Notes: generated by a model not told the origin, from the sequence alone. 64,000 nucleotides of DNA from a virus (IMGVR_UViG_3300032235_000623:32001-96000); one strand, 5' to 3'; counted from the stretch's first letter, positions 44,071 to 63,504 are shown. Numbers and translations are program-made.

Positions 44071-47000
44071 TGGCCGATGTAATTAAGGTTGTAGAGCAAA
44101 AAAATAAAGTAATCATTTCATCTCCAGGATCTCAAGGTCCAAGAGGTAAAACAATACTTAATGGATCTGGTGCACCTGCAAATAATTTAGGACTAGAGGG
44201 CGATTTTTATTATGATAAAGATTCTGCTGCATTTTATGGTCCAAAGTTATCAGACCTAACATGGGTTGGTGCAACAGTTATAGAGTTTGCAACAACAGAG
44301 AATGTCTCTTATACAACATCTTGGGAGCTATCTCAATTAGTTGGTCCAGTAAATGGGGAATACTCCATACAAATAACACATAACTTAGGATACAGTCCAA
44401 GTGTAACAATTAAGTCAAGTTCTGGTGACGTAGTAGAAACTGGAATAAATTATGATTCGCTTAATCAGTTAACTCTTGTAATGGCACAGCCGTTTTCTGG
44501 AACAGTATACCTATCATAAGGAGATAAAAAAATGGCAAGAAAATTTTTGGTAAGCGTCGACCTAAATAAAAATGAACTTCTAAATGCCAGAATTCAGAAT
44601 TTAGGTAGTGCCCCATCAAGTCCAGTATCAGGACAAATTTATTTTGATACAAACGATAATGTTTTATATTTTTATAACGGAACTTCTTGGGTCCCAGCAT
44701 CTGGAGCAACAGATGTAATTCAAGAGGTTATAGGTTCTTCTGTTATAGGAGGAACAGGATTAACAGCCACATATGACAACGTATCTGGCGAAACAACTAT
44801 TTCTTTAGATGACACAGCTGTAACAACTGGAAGCTATGGTTCAAGCACAGAGATTCCAACATTTACCGTAGACGCACAAGGTAGACTTACTGCAGCTGGA
44901 AGCACAACAATCTCTACAGATTTAGCAGTTTCCGCAGATTCTGGATCAGATACTATATCTCTTCTTTCAGAAACCCTAACTATTTCTGGCGGAGAAGGAA
45001 TTGATACATCTGTTGAGTCTGGAACAATTACAATTTCTGGAGAAGATGCTTCAGGAACTAATAAGGGTATTGCTAGCTTCAACACAACAGATTTTTCTGT
45101 ATCTAATGGCCATGTAAGTTTAGCAAAAGACCCAGTAATTACACTTTCTGGAGATGTTGCTGGTTCTGCAACAATGACAAACCTTGGCGATGTCACAATA
45201 ACAACAACTGTACAGCCAAACTCAGTAGCACTTGGCACAGATACAACTGGTAACTATATTGCAACAATTTCAGGAACAGCTAATGAAATTACAGTAACAG
45301 GATCAGGATCAGAGTCAGCAGCGGTAACAATTGGATTGCCAGACGACGTAACAGTTTCTGGAAACTTAACAGTTAATGGTAACCTTGATGTTGCAGGATC
45401 AATTAATTCTGTAAATACAACAGAAGTAAATATAGTTGACAATAAGGTTGTATTAAATTCAAATGTTACAGGTTCTCCTACAGCAAATGCTGGAGTTAGA
45501 GTTGAGCGTGGAACATCAACAGATGTTGAACTTCTTTGGAATGAGACATCAGATCAGTGGACATTGACAAATGATGGAACTAACTATCATGAAATAACAA
45601 GAAAGTACAAGCAAACACTTTCTACATCTGCAACATCATATACTGTTACACACAATCTAGGAACTCAAGATGTTATTGTACAAATTTATGAAGTTGCATC
45701 ACCATACCAGCAAATTTTTGCTGATGTAGAGCATACAAGCTCAAGCACAGTAACAGTAAAATTTGCATCTGCTCCAACAGCTGGAGAATATAGAGTAGTT
45801 ATCATAGGATAAGGTAGTAATAATGGCCAAATTTAAATCATTATTAAACTTAGTAACACTTTCAGTAGACCCATCATCTGGGTCTGCTGGAGATGTTTAC
45901 TTTAATGTAGTTTCAAAAAATTTGAAGATACATAATGGTTTAGTTTGGGTTGACTTAACACCTAGTTCAAAAGATCCTGCTCCATTCTATATGCACACTC
46001 ATACTTATGATGGAGATGTTCATACAATTACAATTGATGACATGATTACGTTTGACAATGATTTAAATAATGAAGCATCAGTTGTGGAACAAATCCCTGC
46101 TATAATTGGATTTGACGGCGGTAGTCCAAATTCAATATACGACGATGTTTCTTATAAAGAGTTAACATTGTTAGACGGAGGCGAAATTGGCAACTAATTT
46201 CCCAACAAGTTTAGACAACTTATCAAATCCAGATGGAACAGACAGCCTACAAGGACACGCACAGCTTCATGCTAATGTAAATGATGCAATTGAAGCTATT
46301 CAGTCTAAAATCGGAGTAGATGGTTCAGAAGATACAACGTCTTTAGATTACAGAGTATCTCAGTTAGAAATATCTCCAGTAGATATTGAGCAAGTACAGG
46401 ATGCAATTGCAGCAGCATTTGCTGCTGGAGATCAATCACAGGTTACAGTATCTTATAATGATGCTTTAAACTCATTAACGCTTTTAGTAAATGCTGCAGA
46501 AACAGCAGGATATACAAGCACAGTTAAACACTATGTAAAAAATTCTTCAGGGTCAACAATAACTGCTGGCACTCCAGTGTATACATCTGGAGCAAATGGT
46601 GCAAATATTCTTGTTTCAAAAGCATCTAATGTTGGAGAGTCAACTTCAAGCAAAACGTTTGGCTTGCTTGCACAAAATTTAGCTCAAAATGGTATTGGAT
46701 TTGTAGTTACTGAGGGATTACTTTCAGGTCTAAATACTAGCTCAGCCAATGCTGGTGATCCAGTATGGCTTGGAGTAAATGGATCTGTTATATACGGGTT
46801 ATCTAATAAGCCAATAGCTCCAGCACACCTAGTATTTTTAGGTATTGTAACTAGAGCACACGCACAAAATGGTCAGATTTTTGTTAAGGTTCAAAATGGA
46901 TTTGAACTTAACGAATTACACGATGTAGATTTAGATTACTCTAATCCTCCATCCGACGGAGATGTGCTTGCTTATAATGCAACTACAGGAATGTGGACAA

Positions 47001-49290
47001 ATTCATCTGAATTTGTAACACAAAGTTATGTAGACGATGCTATTTCTACAGTAGGAGACTCAGTAGATTCTGTAACAACCTTACTAGGGCTAGAGGGTAA
47101 CAATGATACTGTTATTACTGGGATAGAAAATGAGACTGAGGTAGATACTTTTGCAGTTTCAGATTTTAGAACAGTTAAGTATCATTTGCAAATATCAAGA
47201 AATTCAGAGTTTTATGTTTCTGATTTCTTGTTGTTAGCAGATGGAACAAATGTAAATGTAGTTGAGTCAAACGTAATATCAAACACATCTTCAGATCTTG
47301 CAAATGTAAATTTTGAAGAAAATTCAGGTATAATTAGTCTATATGTGACACCTGTTGGATCTGCTGTAACAGCAAGATTTATCAGAATGTCATTAAAGGC
47401 TTAATAAGGGGGTTGCACAGTGGCAACATTAAATAAAAACTTTAGAATTAAAAATGGCTTGGTAGTTGAAGGATCAACGGCTACCGTAAATGGTCAAAAT
47501 ATATTAACAGAGACAGGTTCTGATCAATATATTATCAATCTCATTGGTGGCACAGCAACAGATGCAAATACTCCTAGTGCAGTTGTAAAGCGTGATGCAA
47601 ATGGTGATTTTGCTGCAGGCACAATTACAGCAGATCTCGCTGGTAATGCAGACACAGCAACAACACTTGAGACTTCACGTACAATTGAATTAACTGGAGA
47701 TGTAACAGGCTCTGTTTCATTTGATGGTTCACAAAATGTTCAAATTCAAGCAGTCATAGACGGGTCGTTTGCTACAAATTCAGAAGTAACATCAGCAATT
47801 GAAAATGCAGCAGGCTCATACCTTGATTGGGATGGACAATCTCAGCTTAATGTTAATACACAAGAAATTGCTCAGGCATTTGGTCAGACATTTGATTCTT
47901 ATGGGTCAGCAGATGATGCAGAAACAGCAGCAAACTTATATACAGATGGCCGTGAAACTGCCATCACGACTGCTTATCAGGACTACGCTGATCAGGCAGA
48001 GGTTGATGCTAAGGCATACACAGATGCTCGTGAAACAGCAATTACATCTGCATACCAGTCATACGCTGATACAGCAGAACAAGATGCTAAGGACTATGCA
48101 GATGATTTAATTAATGATGCATCAAACCTTTCAACAGAAGTTTGGTCAGCATACAAGACAAATACAGAAATTGGTCTTGCAGAACAAAGAGCAAAGGATC
48201 ACGCAGATGATGCTGTAGCAGGACTTGTTGGTTCAGCTCCAGAGGTTTTGGATACAATTCAAGAATTGGCAACAGCACTTGAAAATAATCCAGACATTAT
48301 TGCTGATCTTGAAAATGTTGCAGCAGGTAAGCAAAATACACTAACTCCAGGCGCAAATATTGATATCTCAAACGATACAATTTCTGTAACTGGACTTGAT
48401 GCAGCAGACATTTCAGACTTTAACCAAGCAGCACTTTCTGCAACATCAGCAGCATACGATCCATCTGGTGCAGCAGCAGATGCTCAGACAAACGCTGAGG
48501 CAACTGCACAGGCAGCACTTGATGATGTATTAGATGCTACAACAGCATTTACTGCACTTAATGTAAACGATGAGGCTAAGCAATTTGCTGCAAGCTCAAC
48601 ATCATTAGGGTCAGTAGTTGTAACAGCTTATGAGTGGGCAAAAGCTGATTATCGTTCAGCAAAGGCACTTGTAAAGATTGACAACGGAACACATAATGAA
48701 ATATCAGAAATTCTACTCACACTAGATTCATCAGATAACGTATCAATTACAGAATATGCAATTGTAGGTACTAACGGATCTAGAGGAACAATCACAGCAG
48801 ATGTTTCAGGTTCAAATGTTAGAATTCGTGTAAATCCAGTAAACGATTCAACAATTAAAATTACTGGAACACTGCTTAAATAATTAAATAAAAGGCTTGG
48901 GGGAGAGCCTAAATCTCCCCCACAAATAAAAATTCGGGGGATAGGGAACTCGTGACAACAAACAATAAAGATTTTAAAGTTAAGAATGGCCTTGTAGTTG
49001 AGGGTAATCAAATAACGCTTGGAGATACTCCAGTAGCCTTCAATACCTCCACAAGCAAATTAGAAATTTATATTAACGGTTCTTGGCAGCCAATAGCTTT
49101 TACATCAGAAATTCCAGATGTTCCAGAAATTACATTTATGGATATCGGATTGGCCATTGACTACGATGGAGAACCAGTATATACAGTTCAGGCAAATGGT
49201 GTAGTTACCACAGCCACAAAATTCGCAGATGGGGGAACTCCATCAACATCTTCTTTCGGTATTACCTTTGATTCAGGTACTATCGGTTAA
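44070..49290 (+). CDS. tail-fibre/accessory structural gene run (44070..44519, 44532..45812, 45823..46197, 46187..47404, 47420..48883, 48952..49290)
   Basis: Ser/Thr/Gly-rich; THNLG, NFRIKNGL.VEG, APE.LDT..ELA fibre motifs. Confidence 0.8.
48899..48921 (+). terminator. hairpin after fibre gene
   Basis: GGGGGAGA..TCTCCCCC. Confidence 0.5.
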
Positions 49291-49320
49291 GAAGATAAAA
49301 TGATATAATAAGGAGTAATT

Positions 49321-51675
49321 ATGGCAACAGTAAGAATTCAATTAAGAAGAGGCACAGCAGCAGAATGGACAGCTGCAAATCCTGTATTGGCCGCAGGCGA
49401 AATGGGTCTGGAGACAGACACAGGCGATTTTAAATTTGGTGATGGCTCATCAGCCTGGGGTGCTTTAAGCTATTCTCTAGGCAATGCAATTGATGACTAT
49501 ATCCCGCTTTCAGAAAAGGGTAATCCAGATGGAGTTGCAACACTTAACTCACAAGGATTAATTCCTGTAGAGCAGTTGCCAGCAGCTGCAGCCCTAGAAG
49601 TTGAGGTAGCATCTTCAATTTCAGATCACAATTCAGATACCACAAACGTACACGGTATTACTGATACATCTATTCTTGTAACAACAACAGGAAATCAAAC
49701 TTTAACCTCTAAGAGCTTGACATCACCAGCTCTTACAGGAACACCAACTGCCCCTACTGCAAATGTTGGAACAGACACAACTCAAATTGCAACAACAGCA
49801 TTCGTTCAGGATGCAATTGAGGCAGTTGTTGGAGCAGCACCAGAAGCATTGAACACCTTAGCAGAAATTGCTACATCCCTAAATGATGACGCAGATCTAG
49901 CTGGTACACTAACCACATCAATTGGTACAAAGGTCTCAAAGGCTGGAGATACAATGAGCGGGGTTCTTGATATGGGCTCTAACAAGGTAACAAACCTTGG
50001 AACACCTACATCAAATTTTGATGCTGCAAGCAAGTATTATGTAGATTCAAGAGTAGCTGGAGATGTCGGCGACCACAATGATTTAACAACAAATGTACAT
50101 GGTATTGGAGACACAGCTGATCTAGTTTTGACATCAGACTCTAGACTATCAGACGAAAGAACACCACTTAATGATTCTGTAAGCACTGCAAAGCTAAGCA
50201 ATAATGCAGTTGCAACAGCAAAGATTGAAAATGGCGCAGTTTCAGCAGATAAAATTGGAACAGATGCCGTAACAGAAGTTAAGATAATTAATGGAGCAGT
50301 TACAGCAGCAAAGATTGCTGACTACGCAGTTACAACAGAAAAAATTGCTGATTTAAATGTAACAGAGTCAAAACTTAATACAGGATCTGTAACTGAAGAC
50401 AAAATTGCAACAGATGCAGTAACAGAATTAAAGATTGCTGACGGTTCAGTAACATCTGCTAAAATTGCATCAAGCGGAGTAGAGACAGCAAATATTGCTG
50501 GTCTAGCCGTAACAGATGCAAAGATTGCTGACGATGCAGTTACAACAGCAAAAATTGCTGATTCAAACGTAACAGAGTCAAAGATTAATACAGGAGCAGT
50601 AACTGAAGGTAAAATTGGAGCTGGCGCAGTAACAGAATTAAAGATTGCAGATGGCTCAGTAACCTCAGCAAAGATTGCTAATGGAACAATTGTCGATGGA
50701 GACATTTCAACAGTAGCAGCAATTGCTCAGTCAAAGATTGATGGACTTACATCTGATCTTGCTGCCAAGGCGCTAGATTCAGATTTAGATGCACACACAT
50801 CAGCAACAACTTCAGTTCATGGCATTGCTGACACTTCAGTACTTGCAACAGATTCTGAAGTAGCTGCTGCACAGACTGCAGCGCAAAATTTTGCAACATC
50901 TGCAATCTCAACACACAATTCAGACACAACAAATGTGCATGGAATAGTTGATACGAGCAAGCTTGTTACAACAGATGCACAGTCTACAACTTTAGATGGA
51001 GCATTAACAGTTCAGGGAGACCTTACTGTTAATGGTACAACATTTAGCGCATCTGCAACATCTATTACAATTGAAGATAATATGGTTCAGCTTGCTCATC
51101 AAAATTCAGCAAATACAGTAGACTTAGGTCTTGTAGTTGCATATAACGATGGAACAGCTAAGCATGCAGGTATTGTAAGAGATGTATCTGACTCTAAGTG
51201 GAAGCTTTTCAAGGGTGTTACAACAGAGCCATCAACTACAGTTGACTTTACACAAGGATCACTCGATGACCTTGCAGTAGCAGGACTTACTGCAACAACA
51301 GTAACACCATCATCTGGTGTAGTGTTTACAGATGGAACACAGACAAAAGCTGGAGTACCATCAATAACACCAATAACAGAAAAGACATCAAACTATACAC
51401 TTTCAAGTCTTTCTGAAAGAGACACTCTTATTGAGGTAAACCACACAGGAGGATCTGCCGTAACTATCACAGTTCCAGCTGACTCTTCAGTAAATTACCC
51501 AGTAGGAACATCCATAGATATTTTAAGAACAAATACTGGAGAAGTAACAATTGCTGGCTCAGGTGCTACAATTAATGCTACACCAGGCTTAAAGTTAAGA
51601 GCTCAGTGGTCAAGCGCAACTCTATTTAAGAGAGCAGCAAACACATGGGTATTATTCGGAGATCTAAAGGCATAA
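49321..51675 (+). CDS. long tail fibre with Mtd_N-like head-binding domain and 10-aa (AVTxAKIAD) repeats
   Basis: RIQLRRGTAAEW...NPVLAAGE.G.ETDT..FKFGDG; decapeptide repeats ~50170-50700. Confidence 0.85.
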   Translation: MATVRIQLRRGTAAEWTAANPVLAAGEMGLETDTGDFKFGDGSSAWGALSYSLGNAIDDYIPLSEKGNPDGVATLNSQGLIPVEQLPAAAALEVEVASSISDHNSDTTNVHGITDTSILVTTTGNQTLTSKSLTSPALTGTPTAPTANVGTDTTQIATTAFVQDAIEAVVGAAPEALNTLAEIATSLNDDADLAGTLTTSIGTKVSKAGDTMSGVLDMGSNKVTNLGTPTSNFDAASKYYVDSRVAGDVGDHNDLTTNVHGIGDTADLVLTSDSRLSDERTPLNDSVSTAKLSNNAVATAKIENGAVSADKIGTDAVTEVKIINGAVTAAKIADYAVTTEKIADLNVTESKLNTGSVTEDKIATDAVTELKIADGSVTSAKIASSGVETANIAGLAVTDAKIADDAVTTAKIADSNVTESKINTGAVTEGKIGAGAVTELKIADGSVTSAKIANGTIVDGDISTVAAIAQSKIDGLTSDLAAKALDSDLDAHTSATTSVHGIADTSVLATDSEVAAAQTAAQNFATSAISTHNSDTTNVHGIVDTSKLVTTDAQSTTLDGALTVQGDLTVNGTTFSASATSITIEDNMVQLAHQNSANTVDLGLVVAYNDGTAKHAGIVRDVSDSKWKLFKGVTTEPSTTVDFTQGSLDDLAVAGLTATTVTPSSGVVFTDGTQTKAGVPSITPITEKTSNYTLSSLSERDTLIEVNHTGGSAVTITVPADSSVNYPVGTSIDILRTNTGEVTIAGSGATINATPGLKLRAQWSSATLFKRAANTWVLFGDLKA

Positions 51676-51685
51676 GGAGCAAACA

Positions 51686-53047
51686 ATGGCAATTAATAAA
51701 AGATCGGGTACAGGTTCTTCAGCACAAGATAACTTTATTGGACCAAATCCAGTAACAGGTCTAACAGCTACAAATGTAGGGTCTGGTAGATCATACAACG
51801 ATGGCAGAATTGACTTATCTTGGACAAATCCTACAAATGGCAATACGCCAACAGGATATAAGATTATTAGAGGCGGTACAGAAATTGCAACTGTTTCTCA
51901 TCCAAATAATACTTATTCAAATACAGGCTTATCGTCTAATACAGGCTACTCTTATGTAGTTCGTGCTTACGATGATTATGCTACATCTGCTGATTCAAAT
52001 ACAGCAACAGCAACCGCAACAACAGTTCCAGCTACAATGAGCTCTCCAACTGCCACCGCAGGAGTAGACAAAGATACGCTTTCTTGGTCAGCGCCTGCAG
52101 ATGGTGGATCAGCCATCACGCTATATAGATGGACATCAAGCGACGGAAAGTCTGGAACATTTTCAGCAGGCTCAACATCTGGTGATGTATCTCAAGAAGC
52201 AAATACGGCTCAAACATATCAGATTAGAGCAGAGAATCTAAATGGAGCAGGAGTATATTCAGGAAATTCAAATTCTGTAACTACACAGGCACCAAGCTTC
52301 TTCGGACCTCCTAGCTTCTTCTCGCCTCCAGGATTCTTCGGACCACCAAACTTCTTCGGTCCTCCAGGATTCTTCGGACCACCAAACTTCTTTGGTCCTC
52401 CAAGCTTCTTCGGTCCTCCAGGATTCTTCGGTCCTCCAGGATTCTTCGGTCCTCCAGGATTCTTCGGTCCTCCAGGATTCTTCGCACCACCATCATTCTA
52501 TAAGAGCGTTGGAATCAATACTCTTCTTAGAACACCTACAGGAATGATTTCTGCAGGACAAATTGAGGTGGGAGATGAAGTTATAGGATTGCGTATCCCA
52601 GGGATACCAGATAACTTCTGGCTTCTAGATGACGGATCAGGTGGAACATATTCTGATTATGTTATTACTCAAGAACAGATTGATAATGCAGAAGAAACTG
52701 TTGTTACTGTTCAAGGAAAAGCTCTTCACGAGAATTCTGGAGCAGTAGTAGTAAATGGTGATATTTATACACTTCATCACTATATCTTGGCTAAAAGAGA
52801 TAATGATATTAGAGTCTTAAACGTTTCTGATTTAGTCAATACAGATTTAGTTTATAATTATCAGACAAAAGATTTTGTTGCTATAGAGTCTCTTGAAACA
52901 AACTCTGAGATAACAATTCAGTCATATTCTATAAACGTAGAGCCTTGGGACTTCTACTTTACAGAAAACGGTCTAACTTTTGACATGCAAGCTCTTTCAG
53001 AGCATCTGTTTGGATCAAACGATCCAGATGGCCCTGGCCCCCTATAA
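51686..53047 (+). CDS. FN3 domains + (PPxFFG)x12 repeat + C-terminal Hint (intein-like) domain
   Basis: LSW/YVVRA FN3 motifs; [20 protein letters not shown] block A; TLHH block B; YSINVE..YFTENG block F. Confidence 0.8.
52289..52504 (+). repeat. coding 18-bp tandem repeat, 12 units
   Basis: Consensus CCTCCAGGATTCTTCGGT = PPGFFG. Confidence 0.95.
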
Positions 53048-53056
53048 TCAATATAG

Positions 53057-53599
53057 GTGAAATTTAAAATAACCAGTACTGGTGAGGAGATAGAGAAATC
53101 TATCTCCTATCAGTCTTTTCCAGATGAACTTTATAAAGAAGGAATTTGGGGTCATTTTGCATTTATAGAAAATAGAGAAATGAATATACGGGTAATATGT
53201 TCTGCTTATAATAATGATAGATATTTACCAGGTACTGTTGTTGTTTCTAATAAAATATTTAATGATTTCCCTATTGCTCAGAGTGCTTGGAATATAAATA
53301 ATAAAATTAGCCGTATGTACGTAGACCCATTTTATAGAAGCAAAAAAGTTGCAACATATAGTGTTATAACAAATGACATGTTGGCTAGAAAAATGGGTTA
53401 CGAGATATGGTCCAACATATATGGAGAAAGAGGCGGAACCCTTGCGGGAGACCAACTATATAATAGAATATACGAGCTAGGTTTTGAGAATGTGAAAGTA
53501 GATATAGATCCTAATGACATTTTCCAGTATAGAAATTTTTCTCATCCAATACACTACATAGATAAGAGGCCAGTATACGATGAATCAACTTTACAGTAA
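53057..53599 (+). CDS. GNAT-like acyltransferase
   Basis: RMYVDPFYRSKKVAT resembles motif A. Confidence 0.55.
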   Translation: MKFKITSTGEEIEKSISYQSFPDELYKEGIWGHFAFIENREMNIRVICSAYNNDRYLPGTVVVSNKIFNDFPIAQSAWNINNKISRMYVDPFYRSKKVATYSVITNDMLARKMGYEIWSNIYGERGGTLAGDQLYNRIYELGFENVKVDIDPNDIFQYRNFSHPIHYIDKRPVYDESTLQ

Positions 53600-54152
53600 A
53601 ACAAAGTTTATAAAAAAGAATATTGATATTGATTTTGATTTAGAAGACATTAAAAATATGTCTTTTAAAAAAGATGAGTTGTTTTTTGTTAAAGATGGCG
53701 ACCTTAACAAGGAAAATGAAATTATCCATAAATCAAAAAATATATTTACAACATACTCTAGCAGCTCATATAGTTTATATAAAGGTATATCTTATTTGTT
53801 AAGAGAAGCTTGTCTTTTGTATGACATAAATAAAGATGTACAGGACTATATGATCTACGGCAAGATTTCAAAGTATGGGGATTATAATAAAGGAATATGG
53901 TATGATTTCCCAGGAATTAATATACCATACCTTCACGGATTCTTTTTCTTTGACTCCAGCTATGAGGTAAACTTTAAGAATCAAAATAATTTAGTTACAG
54001 AAAAAGTAGAAGGCAATACAGTTATTATTAACAAGCCAACTGATTTAATAAATATTAAATCAGAAAAAGACTCAGAAATTATTGAGTTCTATATAGTTCC
54101 AAACGATATGCTTAAACATAATGAACCAGGTGTATGGGTTCCAATTCTATAG
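53580..54152 (+). CDS. hypothetical protein, possibly degenerate DSBH fold
   Basis: Context; no intact HxD..H. Confidence 0.5.
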   Translation: MNQLYSKTKFIKKNIDIDFDLEDIKNMSFKKDELFFVKDGDLNKENEIIHKSKNIFTTYSSSSYSLYKGISYLLREACLLYDINKDVQDYMIYGKISKYGDYNKGIWYDFPGINIPYLHGFFFFDSSYEVNFKNQNNLVTEKVEGNTVIINKPTDLINIKSEKDSEIIEFYIVPNDMLKHNEPGVWVPIL

Positions 54153-54188
54153 TAGAAATGATATAATATACAAAAGAAAAGAGGCAGT

Positions 54189-54887
54189 ATGTTAGAAAAT
54201 GCAGAATTTTTAGCCATGGGCGTTGTTGTCTATAGAAATGCTTTTAAGGACAGCGCAGAATATATTCAGAGAATTGAGAGTGCTCTTGGTTCAGAAGAAA
54301 ATACAAAGTACGGTTGGAAGCCAGGTTATACTGGGTACGGAGCAAAAAATCTAAATTATAGAGACTGTGTAGATTTTAAGATTAAATATAATCAGGATGG
54401 CTCACTTAGTGCACATATGGACTGTGTTCAAAAAGATGACTTAACTGATATTGATAGAGATTTAATTAGAATTTGGGAAGATGCATATTACGCACAACTT
54501 GGTCCAGTAGACGACTATCGTAATATGTTTGGGCTTGCACCATTGAAGTATTGGGAATCATTTAATTTTATTAAGTATGGTCCAGGACAGCACTTCCAGG
54601 TTCACTCAGATCATGGATATTCATATACATGTGTGCTTTCTTCAGTAGGATATCTGAATGATGATTATGAGGGCGGAGAGTTGTTCTTTGACAAGCTAAA
54701 TCTTAAGATTAAGCCAAAGGCTGGAGATCTTTATCTTTTCCCATCATCATATGTATATTCACATGCAGCAATGCCAGTTACATCAGGGACAAAGTACTCT
54801 ATAGTAACGATGTTAGATTACTTAGAAACAGCACACACTCCAGAATACAGGGATCTAGAGTCTAGATATTCTAAAAGCCTATTGTAA
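54189..54887 (+). CDS. 2OG-Fe(II) dioxygenase (P4H-like)
   Basis: HSD, YLNDDYEGGEL, HAA.PV.SG.KY. Confidence 0.9.
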   Translation: MLENAEFLAMGVVVYRNAFKDSAEYIQRIESALGSEENTKYGWKPGYTGYGAKNLNYRDCVDFKIKYNQDGSLSAHMDCVQKDDLTDIDRDLIRIWEDAYYAQLGPVDDYRNMFGLAPLKYWESFNFIKYGPGQHFQVHSDHGYSYTCVLSSVGYLNDDYEGGELFFDKLNLKIKPKAGDLYLFPSSYVYSHAAMPVTSGTKYSIVTMLDYLETAHTPEYRDLESRYSKSLL

Positions 54888-55582
54888 TGTATTCAATTAC
54901 AGGGTATCAGATATCTGAATCTGCTGATATCTATCCTTCCCCAGTAAAAAGAGACTGGATGGATAGTACTCATGATAGGCATGCCTATAATTGTTTTCCA
55001 GTAACCATAACAAATTCTTTAGGCTGGAGCGTATCATTTCCAGAAGAGATATCATTTATTTGGGATGGAATATCTGATAGCTCATCCGAACACGTCAAGG
55101 TGCTATCTGGAGAGAAATATGTGTCTACAAGACGTGCAAATGGCACTATAAGCTTTAATGCAGGACTTGGATTTCAAACAGATTCAAATTTAAGTCTTTT
55201 ATGCATACCAACTCCAAATTTGTTTACAAGAGGCGCACAGTGTTTTACAACATTAATCAGCACTTCTTTTTTTCATGGAGATTTTCCAATTGTATGGAAA
55301 ATTACTGAGCCTATGCACAAGATCACCATTCCAGCAAATACGCCAATTGCAAATATCATTCCAATATCTTTAACTGAGTTGCAAGGTTCAGAAATTAATT
55401 TTAAAAGTCTAGAAGAAATGCCTCCAAGCAAATGTGATGACGCAACAACAATGAAGGCTATAAACGATATAGTTTCTTCTGGAAATTGGACAAATTTTTA
55501 TAGGGATGCAGTAGATGCTTGTGGCAATTCCATTGGGGAGCATGAAGTAAAGTCGATAAGATTAAGAGTTAATAATGCCTAA
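54887..55582 (+). CDS. DUF6065-like protein
   Basis: RDWMD.T...AYNCFP....N.LGW. Confidence 0.65.
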   Translation: MYSITGYQISESADIYPSPVKRDWMDSTHDRHAYNCFPVTITNSLGWSVSFPEEISFIWDGISDSSSEHVKVLSGEKYVSTRRANGTISFNAGLGFQTDSNLSLLCIPTPNLFTRGAQCFTTLISTSFFHGDFPIVWKITEPMHKITIPANTPIANIIPISLTELQGSEINFKSLEEMPPSKCDDATTMKAINDIVSSGNWTNFYRDAVDACGNSIGEHEVKSIRLRVNNA

Positions 55583-56288
55583 AATAACATTTCATTCAAA
55601 TAAAGTATATAATCAACCAGGAGATCAACTAAATCCACAGCCAGCAAAAAAAGCTGTCCCCCAGTGGTTTTCTGAATCTAGCAGATATTGGTTTCCAGAA
55701 AATAAAGATTCTCTTTCGTTTAAAGCATGCCCAGCTTTAGTTGACGCATTTTTATGCGGGTATGTTTTAAAAACACCATGCGATATTTATTTTTATAAAG
55801 AGTCGTACTCAGACGTATTTAAACATACAGATACATTTAAAGTTGTAAAAGAGCCAGGGTATGATGATTTTTGTTGTTCAAGACCAGACATGCAAGGTTT
55901 TCCAAAGCCCCATGGATTTGATAAACACTTCCACTGGTTTCCTAATTGGATGCCAGGCCTAGAGCCTGGTTATAGTGCTTTATATGTACATCCACTAAAT
56001 CGTTTCGATCTACCGTTCACTACCATCTCTGGTATAATTGATAACGATAAGATGGATACTCCTGGCTTAATGCCATTTTTCTTAAAAGAAGGTTTTGAGG
56101 GGTTGATTCCAAAAGGAACTCCCTTTGTTCAAATAATTCCTTTCAAGAGAGAAGACTGGGAGTCAGAAGAAAAGATGTACTCAATAGAAGAGATTTACGA
56201 AAGACATAATTATCAAGCAAATAAATTTAGAGTCCCAGAAGGCGGGGCTTATAAGAAAAAAGTTTGGTCAAGAAAGAGGTACGATTAA
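55575..56288 (+). CDS. DUF6065-related/dUTPase-fold-like protein
   Basis: KACP...D....GY, SGIIDND, IPKGTP.VQIIPFKRE. Confidence 0.55.
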   Translation: MPKITFHSNKVYNQPGDQLNPQPAKKAVPQWFSESSRYWFPENKDSLSFKACPALVDAFLCGYVLKTPCDIYFYKESYSDVFKHTDTFKVVKEPGYDDFCCSRPDMQGFPKPHGFDKHFHWFPNWMPGLEPGYSALYVHPLNRFDLPFTTISGIIDNDKMDTPGLMPFFLKEGFEGLIPKGTPFVQIIPFKREDWESEEKMYSIEEIYERHNYQANKFRVPEGGAYKKKVWSRKRYD

Positions 56289-57007
56289 TGAATATGAAGG
56301 TTTGGGATACAAGCGGTAACCTAGCAAACTATAATGCAAAATCTATAACTCCATCAGGATTTTTTGGAACTTCAGATAAAAATATTGTAGAGGTTGAAAA
56401 CTTTATAACAGAAGAAGAAAACGAAGTGTACCTAGAATTTGCAAGAAAAAATTCTTCTTTTGACGATACTCCAACTGAGTTTAATGAAAATGGAAATGTT
56501 ATATATGATGAAAGACCGTGGGTTAACAGAGTAGCTACTGGGGATAACTTATTAAAAAATGGAGCACACGTCATACCAGTTTTAACAAAAATGGTAGAGC
56601 GTTTTCAAAAGGTTATTGAGGAGTTCTTTGAAGTAGAGGTAATACCAACTGGACCAGCTATTGTTAGATGGCCAGTAAATGCTAGACAAGAGCCTCATGC
56701 TGATAAAGAGTTGCATGAAGGTCCAGATGCAGGTAAGCCAAATTCTTTCCCATGGTATGATCTTGGAACTGTATTTTATTTTAATGATGACTATGAAGGC
56801 GGAGAATTATACTTTCCAAAACAAGGAATTGAGTTCAAGCCAAAAGCACGAGCTGTTTATTTCTTCCCAGGTGATATGAATTATATACATGGAGTTAGAC
56901 CAATAACTAAGGGTTGTAGGTATACTGCTCCATATTTTTGGACGATTACAAAGTTGCCAGAAAAGTATAACGGCCCAAAGGAGTTTAAGTATGAGCCAAA
57001 TAACTAA
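56288..57007 (+). CDS. 2OG-Fe(II) dioxygenase (P4H-like)
   Basis: HAD, NDDYEGGEL, HGV.PI..G.RY. Confidence 0.9.
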   Translation: MNMKVWDTSGNLANYNAKSITPSGFFGTSDKNIVEVENFITEEENEVYLEFARKNSSFDDTPTEFNENGNVIYDERPWVNRVATGDNLLKNGAHVIPVLTKMVERFQKVIEEFFEVEVIPTGPAIVRWPVNARQEPHADKELHEGPDAGKPNSFPWYDLGTVFYFNDDYEGGELYFPKQGIEFKPKARAVYFFPGDMNYIHGVRPITKGCRYTAPYFWTITKLPEKYNGPKEFKYEPNN

Positions 57008-57710
57008 GCATAAAGAAGAATGTTTTACCATTGAAAACTTTTTAACAGAGCATGAGTGCAAAGCAATAATAGCTTATACAGAGTGGCTTGTAGCAAACAA
57101 TATACTTGAGTGGAACCAAATCTCATTCTATGATTCATATGCTATGGGTTTTTGGCCATATGACGATAATCTTGAATACTTTGGATTACCAAAAAATTAT
57201 TTCCATGATGTTTTAAAATTAAAAATTAAAGATGCTTGTGAAAATGTTCTAGGTAAAGATGTAGCAGAAGTTAGCTATCATGCCCAAAAATGGTTGCCAG
57301 GGGCATACGCATCTTTTCATTCAGACAACTCTGACGAAGATGGTAACCCAACAGAATTTGAAAGAAGTAAGTATGCTGCATTTATATATTTAAATGAAGA
57401 CTTCTCTGGAGGTTATTTAAACTTTAAGCATCATGATGTTCATATAGATCCAAAACAAGGCATGTTAGCTATATTTGCTGGAGGACATACTAATGAGCAT
57501 GAGGTCACTAAGGTTCACGGTGGAACAAGATATACAATTGGATCTTTTTGGGATAACGCTGATATAGAGTACACTGAAGAGCAGATTAAAGAGCGTGAAG
57601 AAAGACTAAAAAAGACTAGAGCGGATCAAGATGAAATGTATAGAAAGTGGCAAGAAGAAAAAGAAAATGGCATTGTCCAAGAGTACACTGGAAAGTATGG
57701 TGAGAAGTGA
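56991..57710 (+). CDS. 2OG-Fe(II) dioxygenase (P4H-like)
   Basis: HSD, YLNEDFSGG, HEV..V.GG.RY. Confidence 0.9.
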   Translation: MSQITKHKEECFTIENFLTEHECKAIIAYTEWLVANNILEWNQISFYDSYAMGFWPYDDNLEYFGLPKNYFHDVLKLKIKDACENVLGKDVAEVSYHAQKWLPGAYASFHSDNSDEDGNPTEFERSKYAAFIYLNEDFSGGYLNFKHHDVHIDPKQGMLAIFAGGHTNEHEVTKVHGGTRYTIGSFWDNADIEYTEEQIKEREERLKKTRADQDEMYRKWQEEKENGIVQEYTGKYGEK

Positions 57711-58564
57711 ATAAGATAGAGATCTATCCAAGGGTGGTTGTTTATAAAAACACATTGCCAAGATGGAAAGAGTATATAGAATTATTGAAAAGATCAGAGT
57801 CTGAGCCACCAAGATATTATTTCCAAGACTGGGAAGACTGGTATGGATTTGGCAGAATGATGAATCTATCAATGAAGCATCCAGGTGTGCCTTACGAAGT
57901 AAACTCTGATGATGAATATGCATTGCTTCAAAAAGATTTTCTGCAAGATGTAACTAATGCATACTACGCAGCAAGCGCAGACTACGTACAGACATATGGT
58001 ATATCTTTACCTAATTGGGTAAATAATGGAATATCTATTTGCAAGTATTGGGAAAGCCCAAAACAAAATACAATGGCAATGCATTATCACACAGACTATG
58101 TTGGTGCTAATGCATCCGCCCCAGGCAAAAAATTTGCTATAACGTGCACAATTTATATAAATGACGACTACGATGGTGGCGGATTATCGTTTTTGAGAGA
58201 AGATACTGGAGACGTTATTGACTATAAGCCAGAAGCTGGCGACATAGTTGTGTTCCCATCAGGAGACCCAGTAACTGGGGCATCTCATTATTTTCACGGT
58301 GTTGATAGAGTCGATAATGGCGAAAAGTACTTCATTAGATGCTTTTGGTCTTATGAGTTTGAAGGCACAAAAGAGTGGCACGAAGGTGTAGAAAAATATG
58401 GTCAGGATGTATGGGAAGAAATGCAGCTTGAAAATATGAAGCAGGAGATAAAGTCTGGTAAGTGGCATAGGTATCTAGTCATGCCTGGGGAAGAGGATCC
58501 AAAAATAGAAAAATCTACTCCATTCTTTTTAAGGAGCAATGATGCTTATAAAAAGATTAGATGA
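57707..58564 (+). CDS. 2OG-Fe(II) dioxygenase (P4H-like)
   Basis: HTD, YINDDYDGG, HGV....G.KY. Confidence 0.9.
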   Translation: MNKIEIYPRVVVYKNTLPRWKEYIELLKRSESEPPRYYFQDWEDWYGFGRMMNLSMKHPGVPYEVNSDDEYALLQKDFLQDVTNAYYAASADYVQTYGISLPNWVNNGISICKYWESPKQNTMAMHYHTDYVGANASAPGKKFAITCTIYINDDYDGGGLSFLREDTGDVIDYKPEAGDIVVFPSGDPVTGASHYFHGVDRVDNGEKYFIRCFWSYEFEGTKEWHEGVEKYGQDVWEEMQLENMKQEIKSGKWHRYLVMPGEEDPKIEKSTPFFLRSNDAYKKIR

Positions 58565-59156
58565 AAATATTGTTTACTATGAGAATGTTTTAGAAAATCC
58601 ATATTCTTTTTTAGAAAAAATTGAAGAGCTAGATTCAAGTAATTCAAACATATCGCATTTAAGTAAGTGGGAAAAGTGGAGTGCTAGTAATTCAGATAAG
58701 CAGTATGGAATTACTAAAAATGGAACATTTTCTAATATGCAGTATGTTACAGAAGCAGACATAGAGACATCTTTTATATCTTATAAGATAAAAGCAATAA
58801 CAGACCTATGTTTTGCAAACTATAGACACCTTACTGGAGCAGAAATGCTAAAGCTGCCAGATTATTTTAGTATTAGAAAATATGATACTGGTGCAGATAT
58901 GGGCAGACATGTTGACTCTGAAGATCCAACCGATAAGTCTCACCCAGTTGTTTCTGGAGTGCTTTATCTAAATGATGATTATGAAGGCGGAGAAATTTAT
59001 TTTCCAGAACAGAATATAAAGATTAAGCCTTCTGCGGGAAGCATGATAATGTTTCCTTCCTATCGTCCATATTTTCATCATCCGTTAGAGATAACTAACG
59101 GTAATAAATACATGGTACCATTCTTCTGGTACCCATTAGAAACGGTTTGGGAATAA
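58539..59156 (+). CDS. 2OG-Fe(II) dioxygenase (P4H-like)
   Basis: HVD, YLNDDYEGGE, H....TNGNKY. Confidence 0.9.
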   Translation: MMLIKRLDENIVYYENVLENPYSFLEKIEELDSSNSNISHLSKWEKWSASNSDKQYGITKNGTFSNMQYVTEADIETSFISYKIKAITDLCFANYRHLTGAEMLKLPDYFSIRKYDTGADMGRHVDSEDPTDKSHPVVSGVLYLNDDYEGGEIYFPEQNIKIKPSAGSMIMFPSYRPYFHHPLEITNGNKYMVPFFWYPLETVWE

Positions 59157-59163
59157 ATGAATA

Positions 59164-59823
59164 ATGAAAGCAAAACAAAATTTTTGGTCAGCGCTATACG
59201 AAAGGTCACAGCCTAAAATGATGTACTTACCTAACATACTAGATGACAAATGTGTTTATTTTAGAAATACAATTTCAGAGCCACATAAACTAATAGAGTT
59301 TATTGAAGAGTGCGAAAACGATAAGTCTACTCATAAATATATATCAAACTGGGCGAGTCTTAGTAACGGAGTAGAATTTAAAAAGTTTTTATTAGAAGAT
59401 GGTGAAATGTCTGAAAGAATGAAGCAGAAAGTTCTATATATTTACAATAGCTTTCAGGCAGGAATTAATTATTGCAAAGAACACTATTCTAATTTTGCAA
59501 TGAAGGATACAACATCAACAAAACCACTGTATCTTTTTAAGTCAAAGCCATTAAGTAGTGTTCAAAGAGATCAAGAGTATAGTATTCCTTCAGGCCCAGA
59601 GTCTGTGTCAGTTTACCTAATGATGAATACAGAGGCAGATGGTAGAGCTTTTTGCGTAAACAAAGAAAGAAGCATCTACATATATCCTGAGCCTTGGAGC
59701 ATAATTATGATTCCAGATAATCTTTCTCATTCAGAAGGAATTAATGCCAATAATGATTTGTATTACTTAAAAACAAAGTTTGAGTTAGGTCCAGAAAAGC
59801 TGCAATGCAGTAATCTGCTATAA
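59164..59823 (+). CDS. degenerate dioxygenase paralogue lacking HxD
   Basis: N-terminus parallels 58539 product; only distal His retained. Confidence 0.55.
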   Translation: MKAKQNFWSALYERSQPKMMYLPNILDDKCVYFRNTISEPHKLIEFIEECENDKSTHKYISNWASLSNGVEFKKFLLEDGEMSERMKQKVLYIYNSFQAGINYCKEHYSNFAMKDTTSTKPLYLFKSKPLSSVQRDQEYSIPSGPESVSVYLMMNTEADGRAFCVNKERSIYIYPEPWSIIMIPDNLSHSEGINANNDLYYLKTKFELGPEKLQCSNLL

Positions 59824-59830
59824 TAAAACT

Positions 59831-61513
59831 ATGTCTTATTCCAGAAACGTATTAAAAGATTACCCTATTGGGTTTTGGGAGCTTTCCGAAAATGCCTTAG
59901 ACGGCTCTGGCTGCGGTAATGACGCAGTGGTTTCTGGAACGCATTATATAGATGGATTTAGCCTTCATCCTTCAATTGGTGGGTATACAAGAATTAAAGG
60001 AAACTCTTATGTTTCCATGCCAATAGATAAAGATTACTATTCGGATACAAACCTTCCACCAATTGCAAACTCTTCAAGCTCCAGAAATGAATTTTCTTTA
60101 GAGCTTTGGTTTAAAGCAGAAGATAACCTTATTAGTGAAACTCCTTTATTCGCAGATGTAAATGCAGATACGGGTATATTCTACGAGCAGGGAAATATTA
60201 TTTTTAAGGTTGAAGGAGAATCTGTAGAGTATACGCTAACAGAGATCAACAGAGCACATCATGTAGTTGGTGTATATTCTGGCAATGATATATCAATATT
60301 CATCAATGGCGATATTGCAGCAAATAAAATTTTAAATAGCTTCAGGTTTAGCTCTGAAGATGTTGATTTTCAGGTTGGTCCAGTAGTAGATAGCAATGCC
60401 TCATTTCTAGTAAATGGGGTAGCTGTATATAGATATGCACTTAGCCTAAATCAAATATATGATCATTTTTATCAGGTAAACAATATTCCGCCAATTCAAA
60501 TTGCTGATCCAGACAACGGATTTATATTCCAGATCAAGAATAGCGCAAGTGGGAAAAGGTTTACATTTGATTACCCAATAAATAAAAATTGGTCAGACGT
60601 TGTAGAAAGCCCTGTAGAATTTAATGATGCTAAAGGGTATGTAGAACTAGGCAAAGCGGACGGGGAAGTCTCTAAGGAGCTCCTAGACGTTATATCAGTA
60701 CCTTCTATTGAAGAGTACGAACACTCTATTATAGAGTGGGTTGGAGATAATGGGGTATCCGTAAAGATATCACAAAATAATGTTGACTTTTATGACTGTA
60801 TAAATGGAATGCCTTTACCAATTCAAGATAATACTAAATCTATTATTTATTTAAAGATAATATTCCAATCATCTAATGCACAAAGATTTAATCCAAGACT
60901 ATATTCATTATCCATTTCTTTCTTTAATGGATTAAGGCTGTACGCATCTAATAGTGCTGACTACATATCCTCTTCTTCTACGGGAGGAAGTGACTTTGGT
61001 TTCACGTGGAACAATTGGCCAATTCTTTCAAGATATAGCCTTAATGGTTTAAGGGCAGGATCAGAGTTTAGCATTTATACAGATAAGGACGTATATTCCC
61101 TTGAGATGTTCTACACACCAACCGAATTGTCTGAGAGCTCATTATTTGACCAGCTATCCTGGAACGGGGCGGGAGCCCTAAGCAAATCAAACATCCTAGC
61201 CCTATATATCAATGGAGAAGATAAGACATCAGAAACCTCAGTATCTGGCTTATTTATACCTGGAGAGATATATCACGTAGTAGCAGTATTAAATAATTCA
61301 ATGACAGGGGAGATTGTCTTCAATGGGGACAATGAGGCCCTATATCAATACATTACGATATATGAGAGCCAATTGAGTTCAGGTACTGCCCAGGCTCATT
61401 ATGAGTTGTATACTAATAGTGTCTCTACTATTGCCGACGGCTCGTCACTTGCACTGACAGAAAACTCTGTAAATTACTACAATAATGATTGGGTTGTAAT
61501 ACAAAGCATATAA
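59831..61513 (+). CDS. LamG/concanavalin-A-like virion protein
   Basis: FSLELWFK, HHVVGVY, IFING, VAVYRYALS. Confidence 0.75.
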   Translation: MSYSRNVLKDYPIGFWELSENALDGSGCGNDAVVSGTHYIDGFSLHPSIGGYTRIKGNSYVSMPIDKDYYSDTNLPPIANSSSSRNEFSLELWFKAEDNLISETPLFADVNADTGIFYEQGNIIFKVEGESVEYTLTEINRAHHVVGVYSGNDISIFINGDIAANKILNSFRFSSEDVDFQVGPVVDSNASFLVNGVAVYRYALSLNQIYDHFYQVNNIPPIQIADPDNGFIFQIKNSASGKRFTFDYPINKNWSDVVESPVEFNDAKGYVELGKADGEVSKELLDVISVPSIEEYEHSIIEWVGDNGVSVKISQNNVDFYDCINGMPLPIQDNTKSIIYLKIIFQSSNAQRFNPRLYSLSISFFNGLRLYASNSADYISSSSTGGSDFGFTWNNWPILSRYSLNGLRAGSEFSIYTDKDVYSLEMFYTPTELSESSLFDQLSWNGAGALSKSNILALYINGEDKTSETSVSGLFIPGEIYHVVAVLNNSMTGEIVFNGDNEALYQYITIYESQLSSGTAQAHYELYTNSVSTIADGSSLALTENSVNYYNNDWVVIQSI

Positions 61514-61576: not shown

Positions 61577-61924
61577 ATGGATATCAAAAGAACTGGTTTT
61601 AAAATCAATGATCACGAGACAACCCTCGGAATATATGTCTGGGAAATGCCAGATGGACGCTGGATTGGCGACGATGACGGAAACTTTCTTTCTATAACTG
61701 CAAAAGAAGGCAATAGAGAAAGAATGAATTTGTTAGCAGATGCTGTTAGGTCTTACGGAATCTACGAAGGCAAGCCAAAGTTCCTTTCTGGCAGAAGAAA
61801 GATTGATGACGAAGAATTTGAGTATCAGCAACAAAGATTAAGATGGGGCCTAACTCCAGATCCTTTGGACATCGGAGTTTATAAAGATGAAATGAAGGCT
61901 CTAAAGAATAGCGGTGGAAAATGA
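61577..61924 (+). CDS. hypothetical protein upstream of portal
   Basis: ORF track; coupled to portal. Confidence 0.7.
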   Translation: MDIKRTGFKINDHETTLGIYVWEMPDGRWIGDDDGNFLSITAKEGNRERMNLLADAVRSYGIYEGKPKFLSGRRKIDDEEFEYQQQRLRWGLTPDPLDIGVYKDEMKALKNSGGK

Positions 61925-63504
61925 TAGAATTTGAAGACGACATGGGTAGCTCTAACGAAGTAGAAATAACAAACACTTCTGACTGGATGAAGTTTTCTTC
62001 TGCACCAGTTCAGAAAACAAATGATCCGTTCCGTGTAGAGAATGACGACCTGCTAAAGATTTCTGGAATCTCTCCAACCTTCAGAAGAAAAGTAAGTAGA
62101 GATTTACAAAAACGATTTGCAGGAATTGACGGTGCTGAAACTCAGCAAAACCTACTTCAGCAAGCGGTAACTGGCTATGCAATGTTTGATTTGGTTGAGC
62201 CACCGTACAACCTAGAGTACCTATCTTCAATTTATGAAATTTCCCCATATAATTACGCTGCTATTAATGCCAAGGTTGCAAACATTGTTGGCTTAGGTTT
62301 TGATTTTATTGAGAGCAGAAAAACAAACGATGCTTTGGATGAAATTGAAGATGATAAGCAATTAGAAAGAGCAAGAAGAAAGCTTAGTAGAATCAGACAA
62401 GATCTTCATGAGTGGCTGGAAGATTGTAACGAAGAAGAAACATTTAAAGAAACATTAATAAAGTTCTACACCGATGTAGAAGCAACAGGAAACGGGTACT
62501 TAGAAATAGGTAGAACCACATCTGGAAAGATTGGTTATATTGGACATATTCCAGCAAAGACAATGAGAGTTCGTCGTCTTCGTGACGGATTTATTCAGTT
62601 GCTTTATGGAAAGGCAGTTTACTTTAGAAACTTTGGAGATCAGGAAACACCAAATCCGATTGCAGGTGGATTAGATAGACCTAACGAAATTATTCATTTA
62701 AAGAAGTACACTCCAAAGAATAACTATTATGGAATTCCAGATATCATTGCTGCACAGAATGCGATGGCAGGTAATGAATTTGCTGGAAAGTACAACTTGG
62801 ACTATTTTGAAAATAAGGCTGTACCAAGATATATTATTACAGTCAAGGGTGCAAAGCTTTCATCTGAGTCAGAGAGAAAGCTTCTTGAGTTTTTCCAAGT
62901 TGGACTAAAGGGCAAAAATCATAGATCTTTGTATATACCCCTTCCAGCAGACTCACCAGATTCTAAGGTTGAATTTAAGATGGAGCCAATTGAGGCGGGT
63001 TCACAGGAGTCATCATTTAACGTTTATAGAACTGCAAACAGAGATGAAATATTAATGGCTCACAGAACTCCAATTAATAAAATTGGTACACCAGCTGGAG
63101 TTAATTTAGCTACAGCAAGAGATGCAGATAAGACTTTTAAAGAGCAGGTATGTAGACCAGCTCAAGAAAATCTTGAGAAGAAATTAAATAAAATCATTGA
63201 AGAAATGACAGATGCGCTTAAATTAAAATTTAATGAGCTTACTCTTACAGATGAAGATACTCAGTCAAAAATTGATGAAAGGTATTTGCGTTTCCAGGTT
63301 TTGACTCCGAATGAAATTAGACTTAGAATGGGCTTAGTCCCTAGAGAAGGCGGAGACAGCCCTGTTGACTTACAGGCGCAGGCAGCTGAAGTAAAATCTC
63401 AAGCATTACAAACTAGAACTAGAGACCAGGAAAGATCTGCAAATTCCCCAGATTCTTCAGGAGAAGGTAGAAATGCAAAGGGAGACGGAAGACAGGTCGA
63501 GTAG
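61921..63504 (+). CDS. portal protein
   Basis: TGNGYLE, EIIH.K, YYGIPDI, YFEN.AVP, TPNEIR..MGL.P. Confidence 0.92.
   Translation: MIEFEDDMGSSNEVEITNTSDWMKFSSAPVQKTNDPFRVENDDLLKISGISPTFRRKVSRDLQKRFAGIDGAETQQNLLQQAVTGYAMFDLVEPPYNLEYLSSIYEISPYNYAAINAKVANIVGLGFDFIESRKTNDALDEIEDDKQLERARRKLSRIRQDLHEWLEDCNEEETFKETLIKFYTDVEATGNGYLEIGRTTSGKIGYIGHIPAKTMRVRRLRDGFIQLLYGKAVYFRNFGDQETPNPIAGGLDRPNEIIHLKKYTPKNNYYGIPDIIAAQNAMAGNEFAGKYNLDYFENKAVPRYIITVKGAKLSSESERKLLEFFQVGLKGKNHRSLYIPLPADSPDSKVEFKMEPIEAGSQESSFNVYRTANRDEILMAHRTPINKIGTPAGVNLATARDADKTFKEQVCRPAQENLEKKLNKIIEEMTDALKLKFNELTLTDEDTQSKIDERYLRFQVLTPNEIRLRMGLVPREGGDSPVDLQAQAAEVKSQALQTRTRDQERSANSPDSSGEGRNAKGDGRQVE

Follow-up and report, generated by a model that had tools for sequence, protein, structure and literature searches.

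Viruses are known to encode prolyl and lysyl hydroxylases that act on viral collagen-like or proline-rich repeats, as in PBCV-1 (prolyl 4-hydroxylase, P4H) and mimivirus (L230), and phage tailspikes and fibers can end in Peptidase S74, a self-cleaving C-terminal intramolecular chaperone domain. Hint domains of the BIL type are found in variable surface proteins, where they mostly cleave and seldom splice (PMC4031507). Here, we analyzed a window of 64,000 nucleotides of viral DNA (bases 32001–96000 of the 108,849-bp IMG/VR record IMGVR_UViG_3300032235_000623, which is approximately 91% complete). In this window, the gene at 51686–53047 encodes fibronectin type III (FN3) domains, a Pro/Phe hexapeptide (PP/FF) repeat and a C-terminal Hint domain, and it is followed by ten genes that include five P4H-type oxygenases (ox1–ox5). 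Our interpretation, to which we assign a probability of roughly 0.55, is that the product is a fiber-type virion protein, that the Hint domain uncaps its PP/FF tail, and that the adjacent enzymes modify this tail. The features of the locus, in window coordinates, are as follows; pLDDT is the predicted local distance difference test score.

51686..53047, plus strand: precursor protein, 453 amino acids, with an N-terminal region, FN3 domains, the PP/FF repeat, the Hint domain and a 20-residue tail
51797..52000, plus strand: FN3 domain, residues 38–105 (Pfam fn3, E 1.2e-6)
52289..52504, plus strand: PP/FF repeat, 12 units of PPxFF[G/A/S], residues 202–273, last residue K273; proposed substrate tail
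52505..52984, plus strand: Hint domain, S274–D433, with S274 at the nucleophile position, T362-x-x-H365 as block B, and F432-D433 in place of His-Asn
52985..53044, plus strand: C-terminal tail after the Hint domain, 20 residues, +1 residue Met434, pLDDT below 60 over most of its length
53057..53599, plus strand: gene A, likely GNAT-fold protein (language-model features and fold)
53580..54152, plus strand: gene B, a separate family, some subfamilies with His-rich cupin-like motifs
54189..54887, plus strand: ox1, PF13640, P4H type, H139-x-D141...H192 (Pfam E 1.4e-15, 58.5 bits)
54887..55582, plus strand: DUF6065 protein (Pfam E 4.8e-31, 108.5 bits against a cut-off of 26.6)
55575..56288, plus strand: DUF6065-like protein, phrog_7084 (PHROG E 2.6e-32; hhalign probability 88.7% to the gene at 54887)
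56264..57007, plus strand: ox2, PF13640, H145-x-D147...H209 invariant (Pfam 28.7 bits against a cut-off of 27)
56991..57710, plus strand: ox3, PF13640, HSD motif at residue 110 (Pfam E 2.1e-10, 41.8 bits)
57707..58564, plus strand: ox4, PF13640, H128-x-D130...H197 invariant (Pfam E 1.9e-10, 42.0 bits)
58539..59156, plus strand: ox5, PF13640, H124-x-D126...H180 (Pfam E 6.7e-11, 43.4 bits)
59164..59823, plus strand: diverged oxygenase homologue without HxD (blastp to ox5 E 8e-6; hhalign 96% to ox5)

The components belong to known families, and the virus-encoded modification of virion proteins is itself already known. The phage Hint domain has the same fold as BIL and hedgehog domains, an N-terminal Ser or Cys nucleophile and a [T/S]xxH block B, and would likewise act on the bond just before it. 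However, it matches no Pfam Hint model, has Phe-Asp where inteins and type-A BILs have His-Asn, and lacks the sterol-recognition region of hedgehog; it is also phage-restricted, always C-terminal, and almost always placed behind a Pro/Phe/Gly repeat. As with the viral hydroxylases of PBCV-1 and mimivirus and the P4H of Bacillus anthracis, the oxygenases are of the P4H type, and here they are virus-encoded and stand beside a proline-rich repeat protein. In contrast to those systems, the repeat is not collagen, the substrate is Hint-capped, and the oxygenases form groups of 5–9 paralogues accompanied by DUF6065, GNAT-like and gene B proteins. The locus also resembles S74-bearing fibers in having a C-terminal domain that is predicted to cut itself off at a conserved Ser, although the fold here is Hint. 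What appears to be new, from the sequences collected, is a phage-specific terminal Hint clade together with a widespread and uncharacterized module of repeat tail and enzyme array, the chemistry of which is predicted. In megablast and tblastn searches, neither the region nor the precursor, the Hint domain, gene A, gene B or the DUF6065 gene had a match in 50,697 GenBank phage records. The Hint clade was nearly absent from approximately 186,000 species genomes, in which the degenerate DNA pattern for CEPYDxFFT found 4 short contigs of metagenome-assembled genomes. A literature search found no description of a phage Hint/fiber/oxygenase system and nothing relevant on DUF6065; where the phiCbK and CBB papers mention Hint, they refer to ordinary inteins of terminase and ribonucleotide reductase.

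The C-terminal part of the precursor was analyzed by profile searches and structure prediction. Residues 274–453 gave no Pfam match, with no Hint family at E values up to 0.1 and no Peptidase S74. An exhaustive HMMER search with this part yielded 89 representative proteins, all of which carry the domain at the extreme C-terminus; residue 1 is Ser in all except three with Cys, and short repeats rich in Pro, Phe and Gly (FGFTP, PFFPPFF, GAFGAF, poly-Pro) almost always precede it. The AlphaFold2 model of the domain, made from an alignment of 75 relatives, has a pLDDT of 88.6, and all top Foldseek matches are Hint folds. VIA-align gave Z 17.9 to Tetrahymena BUBL BIL2 (6y75; root-mean-square deviation 2.1 Å over 138 residues), Z 16.8 to the Clostridium thermocellum BIL and Z 16.5 to hedgehog (1at0). 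The family profile also matches the C. thermocellum BIL (E 5.5e-6) and the gp41-1 intein, with BIL and intein matches ranging from E 5.5e-6 to 4e-4. According to the model, the C-terminal domain is a Hint fold, and an S74-type chaperone domain was ruled out on this ground. In the structural register, S274 (model residue 7) lies opposite residue 1 of many inteins and C258 of hedgehog, and D433 (model residue 166) lies opposite the last intein residue. A sequence-only reading of the window had placed FN3 domains, 12 hexapeptide units and a Hint domain in the last gene of the fiber run; the open reading frame (ORF), Pfam fn3, AlphaFold2, Foldseek and VIA-align agree with it, and the register confirms its claim that the Hint domain starts exactly where the repeat ends, at K273|S274.

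Conservation was counted over 138 distinct domains. Position 1 (S274) is occupied by Ser in 133 domains and by Cys in the other 5, the block B position (T362, in the motif T362-L-H-H365) is Ser or Thr in 136, and H365 is His in all 138; at the last position (D433), Asp occurs 119 times, Asn 11 times and Glu 5 times. The canonical C-terminus of inteins and type-A BILs (His-Asn, a +1 Cys, Ser or Thr, and a C-extein) was not found in the precursor, which has F432-D433-M434 and a 20-residue tail with pLDDT block means of 58 and 43 and values below 50 in the last five residues. This excludes canonical splicing and Asn cyclization for this copy, because D433 and M434 occupy the positions of the intein Asn and +1 nucleophile. 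N-terminal ester formation at S274 is plausible from the residues present, and this predicted chemistry agrees with BIL domains described as cleaving and not splicing. The predicted complex of the Hint domain with the gene A protein had a score of 0.01. In some relatives, the Hint domain of a second Hint-ending gene (L025:2269–3860 and L106:5946–6830, approximate positions) has Cys first and His-Asn last, similar to type-A BILs, and these second genes are preceded by quite different repeats (VVNTDPP, DTI, FGFTP).

The association of the repeat with the enzymes was evaluated in two directions, one of which started from the array. With an alignment of orthologues of ox2, the best-conserved oxygenase of the array, as the query, at least 510 viral contigs were found, and the best 80 of them (53–93% identity) were taken; the upstream comparison was limited to the 37 loci with at least 7 kb upstream. 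A plus-strand ORF with at least three PP/FF motifs lies upstream of the array in 37 of 37 loci, and the first enzyme gene begins less than 1 kb past the repeat ORF for 51 of 64 repeat ORFs. The repeat ORF of 22 of the 37 loci ends in a Hint domain of the Ser or Cys type, and several of the Cys-1 clades among these are new to the comparison; in the other 15 loci, the ORF has no Hint domain and stops 3–58 residues past the repeat. Since these 15 loci have a repeat protein without Hint, the core would be the repeat tail plus the enzyme array, with the Hint domain as an optional, removable cap, and the repeat tail, not the Hint domain, would be the center of the system. The sequence-only reading had tied oxygenase arrays to a joint repeat/Hint gene; the tie to the repeat held in every one of the 37 loci, whereas the Hint half of the claim did not. 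The Hint-less ORFs match the product predicted for Hint removal, and this resemblance is the best indirect support for self-cleavage. Some Hint-less repeat proteins (L159, L174, L181, L182, L189) have a Cys-rich end of about 20 residues with the motif CPCCCC...WFC, and others end in GC...C.C..GGWW or in just 3–11 residues.

The other direction started from the Hint domain, whose relatives were found on 245 IMG/VR contigs; the best 80 (31–39% identity) were taken, the comparison as a whole covered 99 loci at 31–97% identity, and gene maps were drawn with jackhmmer (A, GNAT-like; B; O, oxygenase; D, DUF6065-type). A, B, O or D genes lie directly 3' of the Hint gene (H) in almost all of the 99 loci, and their combinations vary: H-A-O-B-O, H-A-B-O-D-D-O-O-O, H-O-O-D-D-O-O..., H-D-D-B and H-A-B were all seen. 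The combination follows the composition of the segment before the Hint domain. Units of the PP/FF type are followed by large O arrays with D-D, FGFTP by A-B-D-D-B-B-O-O, and irregular Pro-rich linkers by A-O-B-O; non-repetitive linkers are followed by A-B only, and the proline-free GAFGAF or GYGGFYHGF repeats by D (and B) with no adjacent O. Among loci with at least 6 kb downstream of the Hint gene, the two-by-two count of at least three PP/FF motifs against at least three oxygenases was 23/1/0/63 loci, and the numbers of motifs and oxygenases were correlated (Spearman rho 0.79). The comparison that the sequence-only reading had proposed, namely co-occurrence in relatives and covariation of the enzyme set with the repeat, therefore came out in its favor, with an enzyme block behind the repeat gene in nearly every relative.

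On the Hint-domain tree, the state of PP/FF repeat plus array appears in about three separate clades. The arrays are collinear between these clades, in the order ox1-(ox1)-DUF6065-phrog_7084-ox2-(ox4)-ox3-ox5, at 34–59% identity. Because of this collinearity across separate Hint clades, one ancient array appears to accompany PP/FF tails, while the intervening Hint domain would have a different history. The residue before the Hint Ser was also compared with gene A in 62 dereplicated loci (of L009–L108): Lys is present wherever gene A follows (45 loci), Tyr, Asn, Asp or Glu is found where gene A is absent (14), and three second-copy genes have Lys at −1 without an adjacent gene A, which leaves no locus with gene A and another residue. 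Only one clade lacks both, so this co-distribution counts as a single evolutionary event.

The repeat itself is not a chance feature, because the unit is conserved in relatives and the background rate is low. The form (PPxFF[G/A/S])n recurs with 4 to 19 units in 19 close IMG/VR loci and 4 homologous proteins, and the junction with the Hint domain is K|S in every one of them. At least three PP/FF motifs were found in 1 of 247 ORFs of the window and in 30 of 5,596 ORFs of the Hint-derived loci, and all 30 are the Hint gene. In the DNA, the hexapeptide units, the last of which is PPSFYK, appear as a tandem array with an 18-bp period, 10.4 copies and 82% matches. Another study yielded a near-identical strain that differs by 24 of 1,915 bases; behind 52369 it carries an in-frame 18-bp insertion and thus one FFGPPN unit more. 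In assemblies from other runs, the sequence breaks off within the repeat. A collagen triple helix was considered for the repeat and ruled out because Gly does not recur at every third residue: the would-be Gly positions are Ser, Asn or Ala here and Ala or Ser throughout in relatives, and Pfam Collagen scored 21.6 bits, below its cut-off of 27.2. Upstream of the repeat, a second FN3-like stretch extends to about residue 200, which was seen only in the profile search against solved structures; the matches there are to FN3 pairs of titin and fibronectin. Members of the Hint family bear FN3, Ig-like and PASTA domains. One distant member of 767 amino acids (P0067) has PASTA domains (E 4.9e-18) plus FN3, which hints at Gram-positive cell-wall binding.

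All five oxygenases score above the PF13640 gathering cut-off of 27 bits and have a conserved HxD; a distal His at 95% or more is listed for ox1, ox2, ox4 and ox5 only. Their nearest solved relatives are B. anthracis P4H (ox1, E 7.6e-7; ox5, E 2.7e-4) and the collagen lysyl hydroxylase LH3. These results agree with the five P4H-type dioxygenases of the sequence-only reading, and its two DUF6065-like genes were recovered by Pfam (54887) and through phrog_7084 and hhalign (55575). Of the two degenerate oxygenase homologues that it had named, the one at 59164 stood, with homology to ox5 and no conserved HxD. It has no Pfam match, and its product is probably inactive as an oxygenase, judging from the lost motif. 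For the other, gene B, no link to the oxygenases was found, as hhalign against them stayed below 50%. PF13759 did not match gene B of this genome, a Pfam scan of all B members gave noise, and the family profile found nothing credible among Protein Data Bank (PDB) sequences. Some B subfamilies have WHxH and GHPH motifs, both of which this copy has lost, and the only lead comes from language-model features, which connect gene B with 2OG-FeII_Oxy_5 and a cyanophage gene cluster.

Gene A had been called GNAT-like, and the fold and language-model features point the same way, so its product is likely to be a GNAT. Its language-model (Atlas) features reach 0.95 to Acetyltransf_1 clusters, and the top 50 VIA matches of its AlphaFold2 model (pLDDT 64) are all GNAT, with a best Z of only 6.5. 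Gene A gave no Pfam match and no PDB sequence match, its family profile found no credible PDB sequence, and Foldseek with the model returned nothing at E below 0.001; in a Pfam scan of 21 family members, one Acetyltransf_7 (E 0.11) and one Acetyltransf_1 (E 0.2) were at noise level. The DUF6065 family profile likewise had nothing credible among PDB sequences, and a dUTPase-like role considered for this family was dropped because that search gave it no support. Relatives of the phrog_7084/DUF6065-like protein, at 26–33% identity, occur in approximately 50 haloarchaeal virus genomes, including Halorubrum tailed phage 7 (HRTV-7; KC292021.1, 26718–27608).

The mechanism that we propose is as follows. 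The product of the gene at 51686–53047 would be a virion surface protein of the fiber type whose working end is the C-terminal PPxFF tail, and it would be made with a BIL/hedgehog-like Hint cap. At the K273-S274 bond, an N-to-O acyl shift by S274 would give an ester, which would then be resolved, most likely by hydrolysis, so that the Hint cap is lost and the repeat becomes the free C-terminus; a less likely fate would be transfer to another nucleophile. The ten co-directional, packed genes would be dedicated tailoring enzymes of the tail, the oxygenases most likely hydroxylating prolines and possibly other positions. The product would be a hydroxylated, aromatic-rich tail with an adhesive or binding role.

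Several points weigh against this interpretation, and most of them favor its main rival, inherited synteny. Under that rival, the block would form a metabolic or accessory island at a fixed place in the structural module; its enzymes would have host metabolites, nucleic acids or host proteins as substrates and would leave the repeat untouched. All loci have one gene order in common (fibers, repeat gene, enzymes, LamG, portal), so adjacency could be inherited synteny. The Hint tree provides only 2–4 phylogenetically independent contrasts, and with so few no sign test could be significant. Outside the cluster, two further PF13640 genes, at 22787–23338 and 38679–39236, pass the cut-off, and a match below it lies inside the ORF at 4702–5529; an ORF scan found no repeat protein near these three. 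Such oxygenases are common in aquatic phages, and the cyanophage literature proposes other, DNA-repair or 2-oxoglutarate (2OG)-related roles for them (PMC3037559). In HRTV-7, the DUF6065-like gene has a nucleotide-metabolism setting: it stands beside thymidylate synthase and DNA polymerase, between these and the baseplate module, and not by fibers. Genes A, B and D carry no assigned function, and the model of gene A is only moderate. What the sequences and models show is the fold, the K273|S274 boundary, the conserved catalytic residues, the gene content, the adjacency in relatives and its covariation with the repeat; we infer, and do not observe, the cleavage itself, the virion location and every chemical modification. 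Nevertheless, the content of the block shifts with repeat composition across an intervening Hint domain of different history, a PP/FF-repeat protein precedes all 37 ox2-type arrays with or without Hint, proline-free repeats have no adjacent oxygenase, and the nearest solved kin of the oxygenases are peptidyl-proline and peptidyl-lysine hydroxylases. We therefore consider the island explanation unlikely, with perhaps one chance in four left to it.

It is less likely still that the enzymes tailor another target, such as the neighboring fibers or the host envelope, in which case the repeat would be no more than a flexible linker whose length varies, and the Hint domain an assembly aid that is cut off, in the manner of tailspike C-terminal chaperone domains. 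The copy number does vary freely, as would be expected of a spacer: it ranges from 4 to 19, and near-identical strains differ by one unit. Self-cleaving C-terminal assembly domains are also known in phage fibers (Peptidase S74). However, a repeat that ends the protein, as it would after cleavage and does in relatives that lack Hint, links nothing, the enzyme set follows the chemistry of the repeat and not merely its length, and in some loci (L156, L144, L152) two different proteins with the same tail type stand before one array. Finally, release of the repeat as hexapeptide-derived small molecules, which the sequence-only reading had suggested from the logic of ribosomally synthesized and post-translationally modified peptide (RiPP) clusters and by analogy with antamanide and cyclolinopeptide A, is very improbable: an encoded repeated core does adjoin several tailoring enzymes whose set follows its sequence, but the 453-residue precursor has folded FN3 domains and lies in the virion (fiber/portal) module, family members have adhesion-type Ig-like and PASTA domains, the single-turnover Hint domain is the only protease and none acts between units, no leader logic was found, Pfam and PHROG annotation found no protease, cyclase, exporter or other transporter among the ten genes, and the peptide analogy found no support.

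Beyond uncapping and modification of this one tail, a wider reading is possible, and we hold it with somewhat less than even confidence. There would be a widespread system, specific to phages, for tailoring the variable, low-complexity C-terminal tails of fibers (PPxFF, FGFTP, GAFGAF, GYGGFYHGF and others), in which a dedicated enzyme cassette rewrites the tail and cassette membership co-evolves with tail composition, P4H-type oxygenases going with proline, DUF6065 with aromatics and the GNAT-like protein with Lys at the cleavage site. The terminal Hint domain would uncap the tail or use the ester to attach it covalently to another molecule. The system is common, given the at least 510 contigs of the ox2 type and the 245 of the Hint type. 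If the enzymes do modify the tail, the system would represent a new layer of phage host-recognition chemistry, in which a modular set of enzymes oxidizes or acylates the side chains of a simple repeat whose length changes by slippage. Some of the 2OG-Fe(II) oxygenases that aquatic phages encode in large numbers as orphan genes would gain a substrate, DUF6065 would gain a first functional context, and candidate enzymes would become available for the site-specific hydroxylation of Pro/Phe-rich peptides. The system would also define a phage-borne, always-terminal Hint clade whose natural job is apparently C-terminus uncapping.

The precursor gene closes a run of tail-fiber-like genes (44532–51675), one of which has an Mtd_N domain, and the long co-directional block that contains them also includes a class II ribonucleotide reductase gene (41422) before the fiber genes. 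The cluster genes lie on one strand and overlap or are separated by 7–36 nucleotides, and a promoter and terminator scan found no excess over shuffled sequence. Near-identical DNA was found in aquatic and freshwater metagenomes from several studies, so the phage is real and recurrent. The portal protein is nearest, at 57% identity, to those of isolated Streptomyces phages of roughly 127 kb (BillNye, Circinus and others), and this kinship, together with the recurrence in freshwater and aquatic metagenomes, suggests that the host is probably a freshwater actinobacterium. Downstream of the enzyme block, three further features follow.

59831..61513: LamG/ConA-like protein, 560 amino acids, phrog_11584, 3' of the enzyme block
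61577..61924: small ORF between the LamG/ConA-like gene and the portal gene
61921..63504: portal gene

In the relatives, the LamG/ConA-like gene and the small ORF are always found between the enzyme block and the portal gene.

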